Of a DNA stretch of 6,352 bases, positions 1 through 6,352 are shown piece by piece (position 1 is the first letter of the stretch; every line of letters begins with the position of its first letter). Made by a program: the position numbers and the translations under genes. The notes beneath the pieces are model-generated. The model did not search any database. It had not been told where the DNA came from and saw only the letters and a program-made list of their open reading frames with translations. This DNA comes from a virus (taxonomy: Duplodnaviria > Heunggongvirae > Uroviricota > Caudoviricetes). The stretch is from IMG/VR virus record IMGVR_UViG_2690316285_000017, one strand, 5' to 3'.

Positions 1-155
1 TTGAACGTGCTAAAGCTGAAGGGGTACATATGGGGAGGCCTGTAAAAGCTTCTTCAGAGGCTGTACAGACGCTTATTTCACAAGGTAAGACGAGGTTGCA
101 GATTCAGGAAGAGTTAGGAATCTCTAGAGCAACTTATTACAGACTTGCTAAATAA
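1..155 (+). CDS. Small serine recombinase (resolvase/invertase family), 3' end only; gene is truncated at the window start
   Basis: Frame 3 from nt 3 reads ERAKAEGVHMGRPVKASSEAVQTLISQGKTRLQIQEELGISRATYYRLAK then TAA at 153-155. The GRPxK motif followed by an HTH ending ..S(R)AT.YR is the typical C-terminus of Hin/Gin/TnpR-type small serine recombinases. Not in the ORF track because it is 5'-truncated. Confidence 0.6.
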   Translation, partial: ERAKAEGVHMGRPVKASSEAVQTLISQGKTRLQIQEELGISRATYYRLAK

Positions 156-492
156 GTTACTGAATAGTTACATGGATGTAGCTGATATTTGGCTTTTTTG
201 CCAAGGGGGTCACATAGCTGGTGTGACGGGTACTTAGCAGCTACAGACATCTGTCAGATATTTTTGAAGATTCGGGGAAGATGAGATTCAAAGAGGGCTA
301 GTCATTTTTTATAAAAATTTTCAGATTCTGAAAAGTTACTGTACAGATTTTGCACAATCCTACCAAACCTCATAGTTGATTCGATTAGAAGCTAATCTCA
401 TAGAAAGCTCTGTAGCGAGTTTTAACCCCATTTTTAGGGGTAACCTATAGGGATGTACTAACCACCTTAAAATAAAGGGGTAAAATCGCTTA

Positions 493-514
493 GAATGCGT
501 TACAGAGCGTCTGA
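493..514. repeat. Lone copy of the ~26 bp arm motif shared by the two inverted-repeat elements (agaatgcgttacagagcgtctg)
   Basis: Contains cgttacagagcg, a 12/12 match to the 3' arm of element B; its reverse complement cagacgctctgtaacgcattct matches the 5' arm cagacgctctcaatcgcattct at about 18 of 22 positions. Confidence 0.5.
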
Positions 515-847
515 GAAGCCATATTCACAGATTTTACTAAAACCTCAGACTTCTAAGTAGTCTTTTAACAGGAGGGGTTCCCCTATGGTCACATATCCCC
601 TCTCTTTCCACTAAGTAAGCCTTAGCAGCACCTAAGCAACAATTGACTAACAGATTCGGTAGAGTCTATCTCATAGGTCAACTTCATAAACTCAGAGCTA
701 AGTTACCTTGAAAGATTCTACCAAGAACTACACAGGTGTTATTTAGTCTGACTGTGAAGGGATATTTAACGGGAGAAGAGATACGATATAACCCGAAGGG
801 AGAGTATCATCTTAACAATTATCTTAAGAATAAAAACTGAAAAACTC

Positions 848-1814: not shown

Positions 1815-1828
1815 TAGTTTTCCTTGTA

Positions 1829-1926
1829 AGACGCTCTCAATCGCATTCTGACACAAAAAGTACCTGACCTTATGAGTTGACCTGAAGAGGTCGTTTAACT
1901 CGTTACAGGGCGATTGAAGAGGTCTG
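1829..1926. repeat. Inverted-repeat element A (~98 bp): ~26 bp imperfect-palindromic arms flanking a unique core
   Basis: 5' arm agacgctctcaatcgcattctgac (from 1829) and 3' arm cgttacagggcgattgaagaggtctg (1901-1926). The arms are near reverse complements, and both are near-identical to the arms of element B. Confidence 0.8.
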
Positions 1927-2947: not shown

Positions 2948-3220
2948 ATGAAGCAATGGCGAGATGATATTAAACGGTTCTTTGCAACTTACTTCATGAT
3001 TAATTATGAGACAGGAATGCTTGAATGGATTGATGGTGGAGAGGTTAAGACAAGAGATGATGCTTACGGTAATCCAATGATTCGTTATGGCACTCGTGAT
3101 TATTATCTGAAGTATGTCATCTGGTTTTTGCATCATGAAGTTCAGGCAACTAAAAAGATTATCTTCAGGGATGGTAATAAAAGAAATTGCCACCCAAACA
3201 ATTTACTCCTGGAGATTTAA
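2948..3220 (+). CDS. Small protein (90 aa) with a degenerate HNH_3-like motif, probably not catalytic
   Basis: SD aggagg 7 nt upstream. YLKYVIWFLHH...IIFRDGNKRNCHPNNLLL resembles the HNH_3 signature (H.L.W..hG...DHIDGNK.NN..NLR), but FRD replaces the catalytic DH(I)D. Confidence 0.6.
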   Translation: MKQWRDDIKRFFATYFMINYETGMLEWIDGGEVKTRDDAYGNPMIRYGTRDYYLKYVIWFLHHEVQATKKIIFRDGNKRNCHPNNLLLEI

Positions 3221-3420
3221 TGTTATGTATTAAATTCGAATATTTGACAGATAAAATGATTAAGCATGTATCAGACCTGCTCATCAAAGAAGGTGGTTTC
3301 GGTGATGCTTGCAATCCAAAAGATATCTTCATTCATGCCACCAGCCCAAACGCAACACTAAAGACAGCAGTTACAGCGGAATGGTTTGAACGAAATAAAG
3401 CGGAATTAGGTTATTGGTAG
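3220..3420 (+). CDS. Hypothetical small protein (66 aa), translationally coupled to the upstream gene
   Basis: ATG at 3220-3222 overlaps the upstream TAA (3218-3220) as TAATG; SD ggag about 6 nt upstream. The track's longer ORF from 3187 overlaps the preceding gene by 34 nt and has no SD, so the 3220 start is preferred. Confidence 0.55.
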   Translation: MLCIKFEYLTDKMIKHVSDLLIKEGGFGDACNPKDIFIHATSPNATLKTAVTAEWFERNKAELGYW

Positions 3421-3456
3421 TCCGAGACTTTAAGAGAAATTAGAAAAACAGCTTAT

Positions 3457-3576
3457 CAGACGCTCTCAATCGCATTCTAACGCAAAAAACTATCTTATTT
3501 TAGGGTGGGTAATACCACTACAGGCTACCCCTGAAAAAGACTGTTTAGCTCGTTACAGAGCGATTGAGGAGGTCTG
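3457..3576. repeat. Inverted-repeat element B (~120 bp), paralogous to element A
   Basis: 5' arm cagacgctctcaatcgcattctaacgc (from 3457) and 3' arm cgttacagagcgattgaggaggtctg (3551-3576). Intergenic between the gene ending at 3420 and the gene starting at 3597. The arms can form a stem of about 26 bp with about 4 mismatches. Confidence 0.8.
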
Positions 3577-3596
3577 GTAAAAAGGAGATTTTAAAA

Positions 3597-3920
3597 ATGA
3601 ACGAATATGAATTACAGATTTTCATTGATAGCGACACTGCTATGATGGTGCAGGCTTTCGCTGATTCCGGTGTATCAATTGACCTTGATAAATTACTAAA
3701 GCTAATGGCTGAAAACTCAGAAGAAATTGAAGACTTTATTCAGGAAATTGAAACTGGTGAACCGCGTTTTATGTTTCCTGTTACCGACTCAAACATGAAG
3801 CGTCTTATTATCGAAGAAACGAACAAATACAGCGTTAGCCCTGAAAAATATCTCAAGGCGGCTATAGCAATTTTGTATAGCGATAATATTCTGGTGACGG
3901 ATTCGAAGGTGGTGCATTAA
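3597..3920 (+). CDS. Hypothetical acidic protein (107 aa)
   Basis: ATG at 3597 with SD aaggag 9 nt upstream. The track's TTG start at 3564 lies inside the 3' arm of element B and is considered unlikely. Confidence 0.6.
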   Translation: MNEYELQIFIDSDTAMMVQAFADSGVSIDLDKLLKLMAENSEEIEDFIQEIETGEPRFMFPVTDSNMKRLIIEETNKYSVSPEKYLKAAIAILYSDNILVTDSKVVH

Positions 3921-4009: not shown

Positions 4010-4038
4010 TTGACAGACAACCTTGAGCATGACATAAT
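4010..4038 (+). promoter_or_regulatory. Sigma70-type promoter P2 (TTGACA-N17-CATAAT), a paralogue of P1
   Basis: TTGACA at 4010-4015, 17 nt spacer, CATAAT at 4033-4038. The upstream ATGTTAC-N5-TGTTAAAA elements and the downstream TGTATATAT are conserved with P1. Confidence 0.6.
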
Positions 4039-4045
4039 TGTATAT

Positions 4046-4192
4046 ATGGGGGAGAGCAATTCTCTCTTATTTTTTCTTTCAATAATCCGATGGATGGATA
4101 TTCTGAGTTTGAAAGGTGCAATGCTTTTCGTCCTAGCCTTTCAGGTTGGTCTGAGAGGCTATCTCAAAAAGTCTTTGTTCATTCATTATTGA
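4046..4192 (+). CDS. Candidate leaderless small hydrophobic protein (48 aa); alternatively this stretch is the body of a ~190 nt small RNA
   Basis: ATG at 4046-4048 lies 7-8 nt after the P2 -10, where transcription is expected to start (leaderless). Product MGESNSLLFFLSIIRWMDILSLKGAMLFVLAFQVGLRGYLKKSLFIHY. TGA at 4190-4192 is followed 16 nt later by an intrinsic terminator. Confidence 0.3.
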   Translation: MGESNSLLFFLSIIRWMDILSLKGAMLFVLAFQVGLRGYLKKSLFIHY

Positions 4193-4207
4193 ATCCTTTA
4201 CAGCTTT

Positions 4208-4235
4208 GCCCTAATCATGAGTTAGGGCTTTCTTT
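4208..4235 (+). terminator. Rho-independent terminator
   Basis: Stem GCCCTAA (4208-4214), 7 nt loop, TTAGGGC (4222-4228), then TTTCTTT (4229-4235). Confidence 0.6.
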
Positions 4236-4304
4236 AAGAGTTTTTAAACAGAGCTTTTAAAGAAAGTTTTCCTGAAACTTCGTTAACGTTATAAGCAAAC
4301 CTCC

Positions 4305-4339
4305 AAAGCCCTTCACAGATTATGTTTAGGGCTTTTCTT
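4305..4339 (+). terminator. Second terminator-like hairpin
   Basis: Stem aGCCCT (4307-4312) pairs with AGGGCt (4328-4333) across a 15 nt loop, followed by ttttctt. The stem resembles that of the hairpin at 4208-4235. Confidence 0.35.
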
Positions 4340-4408
4340 AATAGAGCATCTTTAATAAATCGTTAAGTCATCTTCTAAGTGTATTGGCGTTGAAGGTGCT
4401 CTATTAAG
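4337..4408. repeat. Perfect 12 bp inverted repeat (cttaatagagca ... tgctctattaag) separated by 48 bp
   Basis: Arms at 4337-4348 and 4397-4408, directly upstream of the SD/ATG of the gene at 4436; the first arm overlaps the U-tract of the preceding hairpin. Confidence 0.8.
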
Positions 4409-5168: not shown

Positions 5169-5378
5169 ATGTTTGAAGAACGTTTAGAGACTATTCGGTC
5201 TGTTTGTGAAAACTTAAAGTTACAAACTAAGCCAGCCTTAAGAATTAAAAACAAACGTCAAGTTATCACCTCACACAAACCAAAAACACGCAAGATTCCA
5301 AAGTGGTGTATTGACCGTATTCCTTCTGATGCTCAAATCATAGGTGAAACGGAATTACATTATCTTGTCCGACATTAA
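5169..5378 (+). CDS. Hypothetical small basic protein (69 aa)
   Basis: Strong SD agaggtga 4 nt upstream of the ATG; 22 nt after the preceding stop, so probably co-transcribed; followed by a terminator. Confidence 0.55.
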   Translation: MFEERLETIRSVCENLKLQTKPALRIKNKRQVITSHKPKTRKIPKWCIDRIPSDAQIIGETELHYLVRH

Positions 5379-5401
5379 AAAAGAATTGGTTGGGTAAATA
5401 C

Positions 5402-5444: not shown

Positions 5445-5534
5445 GTATGTGTGCTACGTGAAATCTGTAAAGCTAATACCCACACTGAAAAATAGAATTT
5501 ACGTACAACACGCTTAAAGAGGTGAAAAATATGA

Positions 5535-6335
5535 ATGGCACAATTTAAAGTTGATGATTTTCTGATTGAGTTAAGTTTTAACTCTCAGAAAGTTTTAAAA
5601 GGCTTGGAAAAAGCCGAGAAACAAACGATGCAGGTAGCATCACGAATTGAGAAGCGATTGAATAAGTCGTTTAGAGTTAATCCTACGCCTTTAAATGATT
5701 CTCTCAAACTAATGGAAAGAAATGTCGATAAAACTGTTTCCAAGATTGAGCAGCGTCTTAAAAACACTAGAGCGTTTAAGATTAAAACTGAAATTGAGGA
5801 TACTTTAAAGCCACTTAGACAACCAAGACAGCCACGAATTAGCGGAAGCAGAGCAATCACAGCAGCTTACTCAGCGAATATGAGCAAGCTTCGTGACTTT
5901 AATCCTATGCTTGAGAAGTATTTTAAAAGCCAGTATTACAGCTTAAGCAGTAAATCCAAGACACTTGGAAACGAAACTTTTAATCGTGAGTTAGCAAAGT
6001 TAAATCAGTCTCTTCGTGAAACACTTTCTAAGTTTAACAAGACCACCAGCAAAAATAATCACAGTGAAAATGCTTCAAATAGTCTGGATGTATTAGCTAC
6101 GAGTGCAATCAAAGCAGGTACAGCCATTTATAGTTTTCAGACAGCCTTAGAAGCTTACAGGCGGATTATGGAGGTTGGTCTGAAAAAAGAAGCATCACAA
6201 CGAGCGGCACAATTCGTTTTAGGTGATGAAGGTGCTAAACGAGCTACAGAATTTGTTAAGAATCTTGCTGATAGTAGTGGTGTAGACCAGATTGAAACAT
6301 TAAGCAGTTTTGCTAAGTTTGAAGTGGCACACTGA
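5535..6335 (+). CDS. Hypothetical protein (266 aa), K/S/T/N-rich and probably largely helical
   Basis: SD aagaggtg 9 nt upstream of the ATG; a long ORF that ends with TGA inside the window; no family recognised from sequence. Confidence 0.6.
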   Translation: MAQFKVDDFLIELSFNSQKVLKGLEKAEKQTMQVASRIEKRLNKSFRVNPTPLNDSLKLMERNVDKTVSKIEQRLKNTRAFKIKTEIEDTLKPLRQPRQPRISGSRAITAAYSANMSKLRDFNPMLEKYFKSQYYSLSSKSKTLGNETFNRELAKLNQSLRETLSKFNKTTSKNNHSENASNSLDVLATSAIKAGTAIYSFQTALEAYRRIMEVGLKKEASQRAAQFVLGDEGAKRATEFVKNLADSSGVDQIETLSSFAKFEVAH

Positions 6336-6352
6336 ATTTGGCCACCTGAACA

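Follow-up and report, generated by a model that had tools for sequence, protein, structure and literature searches.

A Conserved Long-Hairpin Module Between Two Genes of an Escherichia Island Related to Felix O1-like Phages

Introduction

The RNase III hairpins of phage T7 (R0.3 to R18.5) lie between genes, are about 60 nt long, and all share one transcriptional orientation. Conserved intergenic repeats that flank small variable genes are also found as the promoter-early stem-loop (PeSL) cassettes of T4-type phages and as the boundary sequences of lambdoid phages. ERIC, REP/BIME, and Correia sequences are intergenic palindromic repeats or MITEs that occur in many copies at varied chromosomal sites. 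In the satellite P4, seqA, seqB, and seqC are short single-stranded pairing partners that reside within the processed CI RNA and its targets.

The PLE satellites of the Vibrio cholerae phage ICP1 encode a large serine recombinase together with tape-measure and baseplate genes of their own, and show kinship to a lytic myovirus (PMC12987554).

In this work, we analyze element B, a long imperfect hairpin in a 6,352-nt stretch of viral DNA, which is referred to as a whole as the window. A hairpin at 3457-3576 between genes 4 and 5 had been proposed from the sequence alone (the original prediction), and is confirmed here, with coordinates that were right within 4 nt at each end. As judged from its homologues, B is a copy of a long-hairpin module that is family-specific, and not a dispersed or mobile repeat; it resides in an island that is akin to the Felix O1-like phages.

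Structure of Element B and Its Neighboring Signals

The features of the window that concern element B are collected in Table 1. The 5′ arm of the basal helix reads TTATCAGAC/GC/TCTCAATCGC/A/TT/C/TAACG, and the 3′ arm reads CGTTA/C/AG/A/GCGATTGAGG/AG/GTCTGGTAA. The helix that they form consists of 9 + 10 + 2 + 5 pairs, interrupted by one 2 × 2 and two 1 × 1 internal loops, and the mRNA form is predicted to fold into an irregular helix of roughly 27 bp. The stability of the hairpin is far above chance: the RNA fold of 3450-3600 has an energy of −49.2 kcal/mol, as compared with a mean of −30.2 kcal/mol (sd 3.8) for 200 dinucleotide-preserving shuffles (z = −5.05), none of which is as stable as the native sequence. 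The DNA fold of the same segment has an energy of −23.8 kcal/mol (z = −4.75), and folding shows no strand asymmetry, both strands folding about equally well.

Table 1. Coordinates of element B, its copies, and the adjoining genes and signals in the window.
Feature	Position	Strand	Description
Element B	3453..3580	+	long imperfect hairpin; seen as fold, repeat families D5/D7, and nhmmer match 3446-3585
Basal helix arms of B	3453-3482 with 3551-3580		centre 3483-3550 variable
Conserved leader	3419..3452	+	travels with the hairpin; homologous to the flank of copy C (526-561, reverse complement)
SD-like GAGGAGG	3566..3572	+	within the 3′ arm, opposite GCTCTC; not a functional SD
Shine–Dalgarno AAGGAG of gene 5	3582..3587	+	real SD; directly outside the stem
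Gene 4	3220..3420	+	66 aa; upstream of B
Gene 5	3597..3920	+	107 aa; no family match; true start ATG 3597
Paralogue A	1823..1926	+	arms 89-91% identical to those of B; centre different
Paralogue C	388..525	− (inverted)	in non-coding region homologous to Felix O1-like phage non-coding region
58-aa ORF	1813→1638	−	hydrophobic; conserved; annotated in RefSeq relatives; no Pfam match

A scan of 3420-3600 for promoter-like and terminator-like sites predicts none, and a search of the whole window against Rfam with cmscan (both strands, E ≤ 1) yields no matches. The reading as an intrinsic terminator was rejected, as GGTAAAAAGGAG rather than a U-tract comes after the 3′ arm, and no terminator-like site is found in 3440-3600 on either strand. 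An integron attC site would carry its outer core sites (RYYYAAC ... GTTRRRY) at either end of the palindrome and would have an IntI integrase nearby. The TAAC and GTTA motifs of B are instead internal, with 25 paired nucleotides further out, and only serine recombinases, and no IntI, are encoded, so that B was also rejected as an attC site.

A part of the 5′ arm (3460-3483; GACGCTCTCAATCGCATTCTAACG) has exact 23-24-nt matches in the Asteriusvirus jumbo coliphages 121Q, PBECO4, and EJP2, where the matching site is intergenic and lies in a terminal-repeat or early-gene region. With E values of about 0.01-0.04 and no partner arm present there, this match is probably due to chance.

The Hairpin and the Translation Start of Gene 5

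The original prediction placed the real Shine–Dalgarno (SD) sequence of gene 5 just outside the stem, and this is borne out, since the stem ends 2 nt before it; the ATG, which follows GGAG by 9 nt, also lies outside the stem. The suspicion that an ORF beginning with TTG at 3564 is an artefact was likewise correct, as this TTG lies within the stem, lacks an SD, and shares its reading frame with the ATG of gene 5, and the RefSeq start of the orthologous gene is the ATG in the related islands L002, L057, and L058. The same prediction further suggested that the SD-like GAGGAGG could be sequestered in the 3′ arm of a hairpin for processing or translational control. That the run is largely paired holds true: GAGG (3566-3569) pairs with UCUC of the 5′ arm and G3572 is also paired, with A3570 and G3571 residing in the 2 × 2 loop. 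Its sequestration as a meaningful control, however, finds no support. Because no start codon lies 5-12 nt downstream, GAGGAGG is the SD of nothing, and it is not conserved, being GAAGAGG in A and having no counterpart in the C-type (L006) and D-type (L187) hairpins that occupy the B position in other islands. The run is best read as a by-product, namely the purine-rich complement of the conserved pyrimidine-rich 5′ arm (GCTCTC).

A more general form of this idea, in which the hairpin would sequester either GAGGAGG or the SD region and thereby control the translation of gene 5, is very improbable. In its favor, the commonest variant of B carries a 5′ flank, CUUCU, that is able to pair with the true AGGAG, and the SD of L002 is predicted to be paired with a probability of 0.78, as compared with a mean of 0.37 in the window, 0.29 in L057, and 0.41 in L058. 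The partner predicted in L002, however, is the downstream coding sequence and not the hairpin, and the values for the other three B-bearing islands are set against 0.40-0.52 in islands without a hairpin (0.70 in L006, with a C-type copy at the B position), so that the modeled folds give no consistent SD occlusion across islands. Furthermore, the hairpin-less islands of the L001/L005/L188 type, which have unrelated sequence at the B position and a leader that is not unusually structured (z = −1.6), retain the gene 5 start region AGGA-TTTTAAAA-ATG. B was thus rejected as a member of the SD-sequestering hairpin class, since the functional SD and the start codon are located outside the stem and the sequestering pairing is not conserved among orthologous loci.

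Copies, Types, and Distribution of the Module

The module consists of a hairpin of about 105-140 nt together with a leader of ~35 nt. The ~35 nt upstream of the B hairpin are shared with C as part of inverted repeat I1 (490-556 with 3414-3480), with homology breakpoints at q3419 and q3587. A and B form direct repeats, and C runs in the opposite orientation. Copy A lies between a predicted leftward promoter (2022→1993) and the 58-aa minus-strand ORF, and gene 4 accompanies the hairpin at the B position in every hairpin-bearing island. The island positions of A, B, and C, and their orientation relative to one another, do not differ between the loci examined.

A blastn search with B gives matches in 400 of the 5,426 complete E. 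coli genomes, all of them chromosomal, at 1-6 places in each. When one GTDB genome per species was scanned with a pattern, true copies beyond E. coli were found only in E. albertii, the other matches being due to chance. In metagenomes, about 20 contigs carry true copies, all of the same three types; these were recovered by nhmmer, the gapped pattern scan having returned mainly chance matches. A megablast search of phages and plasmids with the window matched only an IS3-family end at 6317-6352. A dispersed intergenic repeat or MITE of the ERIC, REP, or Correia kind was considered and rejected, as the element is confined to island-bearing genomes, with 1-6 places and three fixed island positions; the constant placement and relative orientation of the copies in all loci examined are the reason why the module is regarded as neither dispersed nor mobile.

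The B position itself can hold other versions of the hairpin. In L006, it is occupied by a complete C-type copy that is 93% identical to copy C of the window, between flanking genes that are 70-82% identical. L187 has yet another version there, the fourth (D type), which is built on the pairing of ATTCTAAGCGATTTTAAGCCCC with GGGGTTAAAACGTCTTAGAAT. In L057, copy C and its flanks (window 352-565) are missing precisely, with 20 nt (5373-5392) in place of these 214 nt. In L001 (6358-6729), L005 (5962-6172), and L059, C is replaced by an unrelated C-rich segment with a minus-strand terminator-like hairpin.

Conservation and Maintained Pairing

In a six-island alignment, B of L057 is 97-100% identical, with 63-73% identity in the upstream 200 nt and about 30% in the first 90 nt of gene 5, and B of L034 is 88-97% identical versus 42-58% upstream. 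For copies C and A, the identity between islands is about 95%, as against about 80% for the surrounding sequence. Within the basal helix, 21 of the 23 pairs never vary among 12 distinct B sequences, so that covariation in these copies neither supports nor tests the helix. The apical part does vary: in a small local helix, five of the eight pairs change on one side only and stay paired (U·G, C-G, U-A), which is weak evidence, as 29-39 of 500 shuffles do as well. The A copy of L034 shows one compensated change from T-A to C-G, together with two uncompensated changes.

The construction of the helix varies between the hairpin types. In the C type, GCTCTGTAACG of the 5′ side pairs with CG(C/T)TACAGAGC, a 3′ strand that can also be given as CGYTACAGAGC. 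In the A and B types, the 5′ arm carries GCTCTCAATCGC, for which the 3′ arm has gained GCGATTGA(G/A)GAGG as a partner, and CGTTACAGAGC pairs imperfectly with ATTCTAACG. A shift in the register of the arms is thus compensated, the pairing of GCTCTGTAACG with CGYTACAGAGC in the C type corresponding to that of TCTCAATCGC with GCGATTGAGG in the A and B types. Because the B-, C-, and D-type variants pair the same conserved 5′ half with different 3′ halves, the comparison argues for selection on intrastrand pairing as well as on the sequence of the 5′ half. The hairpin is strongly conserved, and it almost certainly has a function.

The Island and Its Kinship to Felix O1-like Phages

The window represents part of an Escherichia island of ~10 kb and low GC content, full versions of which are found in L002 (5232-15844) and L057 (4629-15574); the insertion sites are yciI/tonB, near ymdF, yecN/yecD, and mdtG. 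The island begins with a small serine recombinase gene, followed by about 2 kb of non-coding DNA and an operon of small genes, which encode proteins of 185 aa and 92 aa, an optional HNH endonuclease, and a protein of 66 aa or, alternatively, 128 aa; the B position and gene 5 come next. After gene 5, a promoter and three terminator-like hairpins precede a 236-aa gene, a tape-measure gene, a Dit-like baseplate gene, and the gene for a large serine recombinase. The 236-aa gene is labeled "transposase" in some records and has no family match; its homologues listed, which come from E. coli, Shigella, E. albertii, and Salmonella, are all at least 87% identical, with no divergent islands among them.

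The tape-measure protein of the island (Pfam TMP_3) is 77% identical to gp68 of the Felix O1-like phage CHB7 over the first 47 aa and 37% identical over 270 aa in its middle part, and the Dit-like protein (Pfam Dit_like) is 71% identical to CHB7 gp67 over 258 aa. In the best explanation, the island is integrated by its large serine recombinase and derives from, or parasitizes, myoviruses of the Felix O1-like group (Ounavirinae). It looks like a PLE-like satellite by its gene content, from which we infer dependence on a helper. Literature on the genome termini, the non-coding region, and the satellites of Felix O1-like phages was searched, and no description of such a satellite or island was found.

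Several parts of the island vary between copies. In the window, the tape-measure gene is cut off after 266 codons by the IS3-family end at 6317-6352, which is matched by sequence annotated as IS911 in phage Sf6 and by a related IS end that many plasmids carry, and because of this cut the present island copy is, as read from its genes, defective. The small serine recombinase has 182 aa and is encoded on the operon strand in the window, L001, L057, and L060; in L002, it has 191 aa and is encoded on the opposite strand, with the switch point near window 156-183 (window 1-155 versus L002 5232-5807). The optional HNH gene precedes the 66-aa gene in the window (2948-3220), L002, and L058, and follows it in L057 (8712-8999), a placement that fits a mobile gene of the homing type. 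Upstream of the tape-measure gene lies a 70-nt segment (5452-5521) that is found again downstream of this gene in related islands (L187 4646-4716), with 77-99% identity, and that may be a repeated regulatory element. The non-coding region also contains a tandem duplication of ~84 nt (1325-1407 and 1419-1502; D2, D9), the halves of which are about 80-88% identical.

Possible Functions of the Hairpin

The function that we tentatively favor for B, as the leading one among several, is that of an intercistronic hairpin which is transcribed and takes part in processing, stability, or the binding of a protein. Since the interval from gene 4 to gene 5 has neither a predicted promoter nor a predicted terminator, B would be transcribed with the operon of genes 1-5. 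In the mRNA, this hairpin between two cistrons may then serve as a double-strand-specific processing site of the RNase III type, as a stability determinant, or as a docking site for a helper or island protein. B has a coaxial stem of at least about 20 bp in a region that would be transcribed, as expected of an RNase III-type processing hairpin, and every hairpin variant at the B position stops only a few nucleotides away from the gene 5 SD. The role would be shared by copy A, in the 5′ leader of a leftward transcript, and perhaps by copy C. Such a processing or control hairpin is a plausible general form of the original prediction, and one that has to explain these two other copies as well. 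The leftward promoter-like site next to A is strong (TTAACA-18-TATAAT, with an extended −10) and would place the reverse complement of A in a 5′ leader, abutting the SD of the 58-aa ORF.

This leftward site is divergent from the operon promoter at 2029-2057, and the block that comprises 1623-2072 is 91-96% conserved between islands. Downstream of gene 5, a second strong promoter-like site (4010-4038; TTGACA-17-CATAAT) is followed immediately by a terminator-like hairpin (4046-4070), and two more such hairpins (4208-4228 and about 4302-4340) lie ahead of the 236-aa gene. The predicted layout of 4010-4340 suggests control of late genes by antitermination or attenuation, and such control at the level of RNA elsewhere in the island speaks for a role of B in RNA.

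Several findings speak against a role of B in RNA. The invariance of the basal helix makes covariation uninformative, the equal folding of both strands leaves the element without an RNA strand signature, no Rfam family is matched, and islands that lack B keep the same start region of gene 5; in addition, the conservation of the sequence appears much stronger than a purely structural RNA would need, and the arm motif GCTCT(G/A)TAAC with its 10-nt periodicity recalls a DNA inverted repeat of a helper-type phage. A close rival, possible although less probable, is that A, B, and C are cis-acting sites at the DNA level, that is, inverted arrays of units of about 10 bp (CGCTCTxxAA, CGCATTCTAA, CGCAAAAAAC, and their complements) that are bound by a protein of the helper phage or of the island. 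Candidate binders would be the RHH-like 92-aa product of gene 2, which weakly matches DndE, the 128-aa HTH protein, the small serine recombinase, or a helper-phage protein; the sites would serve replication, packaging, or operator control, and the ability to form a hairpin would follow from the inverted arrays or from the extrusion of cruciforms. The invariant arms around a variable centre, a conservation of B that far exceeds that of its flanks, the equal folding of both strands, and the recurrence of CGC at 10-nt intervals in the 5′ halves of the three types fit such sites, as does the phage kinship of the surrounding DNA. Three blocks of the island's non-coding region (228-358, 650-693, and 881-950) are homologous to a 1.7-kb convergent non-coding region of Felix O1-like phages, with E values of 3e-12 to 4e-5 in a small search space and of 2e-6 in the whole phage collection. 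That phage region is bounded on both sides by terminators and holds two of the three long inverted repeats of the 88-kb CHB7 genome, one of which is composed of GCTCTATAAC twice ... TTATAGAGC (also written GCTCTATAACGCTCTATAACGG ... CTTTATAGAGCTTCCTAGAGCC) and has a 10-bp unit that occurs 9 times in phiWec172. The island arms, however, resemble the phage repeat at the motif level only (19/27, as against 20/27 elsewhere genome-wide), the 3′ arm is not among the top matches in the phage genome, and nhmmer finds no match to the phage repeat, so that the homology of the arms to this repeat, suggestive by motif, architecture, and neighborhood and not statistically significant, is a lead only. Moreover, B is self-complementary over its entire length, up to a small loop at the apex, and in the variants different 3′ arms re-establish this complementarity, neither of which an array of protein sites would need; two versions of the arm (GTAAC and CAATC) coexist in one island, and B lies within an operon. 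A bolder combination, in which the three modules are satellite copies of the Felix O1-like inverted-repeat element that are recognized, as DNA or RNA, by a helper protein, so that helper infection switches on the expression, replication, or packaging of the satellite, is rather doubtful.

It is less likely still, and on the whole improbable, that B is a recombination element, whether as a crossover site of the small serine recombinase or as a conserved linker for the homologous exchange of modules in the manner of the PeSL cassettes of T4-type phages. Mosaic breakpoints do fall at the borders of the elements (q2951/q3419 and q3587 for B, q357 and q562 for C), the HNH endonuclease gene adjoins B at two different insertion points, and both the direct and inverted arrangement of the copies and the exact loss or replacement of C in some islands would be in keeping with exchange. 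Chimeric queries against the 5,426 genomes, which cover only products that are fixed in genomes, nevertheless find the A × B deletion junction joined in none of 423 genomes with the pieces and the C × A inversion junction in none of 459; B contains no promoter, and homologous exchange would account for the mosaicism but not for the maintained pairing. A serine-recombinase crossover site of the hix, gix, or res kind was accordingly rejected, and since the predicted junctions are absent and C keeps one orientation with respect to A and B throughout the loci examined, a role of B as a site-specific crossover site is unlikely. As a conserved stretch, B may passively host homologous exchange.

Other repeats of these non-coding regions can be noted here. 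The island blocks and the phage region (CHB7, phiWec172, and JLBYU28) are homologous in rearranged order, and the phage region contains many repeats of the TGTTAAGA type, whose period is about 11 bp, as well as a 10-bp ACGCTCTATA repeat in 2 to 9 copies. An 11-nt TGTTAAG-type motif was tried as an explanation of the arms, and the counts were unconvincing. In the island, a perfect 28-nt tandem repeat (848-903; TTAACAGATAACCACCTAGAAAGAAGGG twice), which is iteron-like, directly precedes a phage-homologous block.

Significance

A lone intergenic hairpin beside a ribosome-binding site would be ordinary, and the idea that it traps an SD fails. The notable part is that a very strongly conserved module, in which the structure is maintained, occurs three times in a small island akin to lytic Felix O1-like phages. 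If the island is a satellite, these hairpins are prime candidates for regulatory or cis-acting signals and offer a handle on what the helper contributes; if they are indeed recognized by a helper, they would constitute a device for sensing the helper in a PLE-like E. coli satellite, as yet undescribed, of a virulent myovirus. As a practical marker, the module reveals this family of islands in about 7% of the complete genomes of E. coli.

Comparison with Known Systems

Like ERIC, REP/BIME, and Correia sequences, the island hairpins are imperfect palindromes of about 100-150 bp that lie in intergenic DNA, presumably transcribed, and would fold in the mRNA; in contrast to them, they are confined to the island at three fixed positions, have no target-site duplications, and share no sequence similarity with those repeats. 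The seqA, seqB, and seqC sequences of P4 are comparable in being three related sequences in a satellite, some of them mutually complementary, near early promoters. They act at the RNA level, a role that is only proposed for the island copies, each of which, unlike the P4 sequences, is itself a self-complementary hairpin and is not known to pair in trans.

With regard to the island rather than the hairpin, PLE shares the large serine recombinase, the link to a lytic myovirus, the tape-measure and baseplate genes homologous to those of the helper, and a large repeat-rich non-coding region (PMC12987554). The two differ in host and helper family and in size (about 10 kb for the island versus about 18 kb for PLE; PMC12987554), no RepA or capsid-remodeling homologue is recognized in the island, and its dependence on a helper is putative.

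In its genomic pattern, the module appears closest to the PeSL or boundary-sequence type of intergenic module. Mosaic breakpoints occur at the borders of both, and both flank small variable genes; B, however, has no promoter, and deletion or inversion products between the copies are absent from the 5,426 genomes. Mechanistically, the closest analogue would be the RNase III hairpins between T7 genes. The island elements differ from these in being 105-140 nt long and much more highly conserved, with one copy inverted and one located upstream of a rightward promoter, and with processing that is only putative. They resemble the T7 sites in forming a family of long, irregular hairpins that are paralogous and related in sequence and that lie between genes, in presumably transcribed parts of a phage-type genome, with stems of at least 20 bp that contain internal loops, adjoin the downstream ribosome-binding site, and lack a U-tract.
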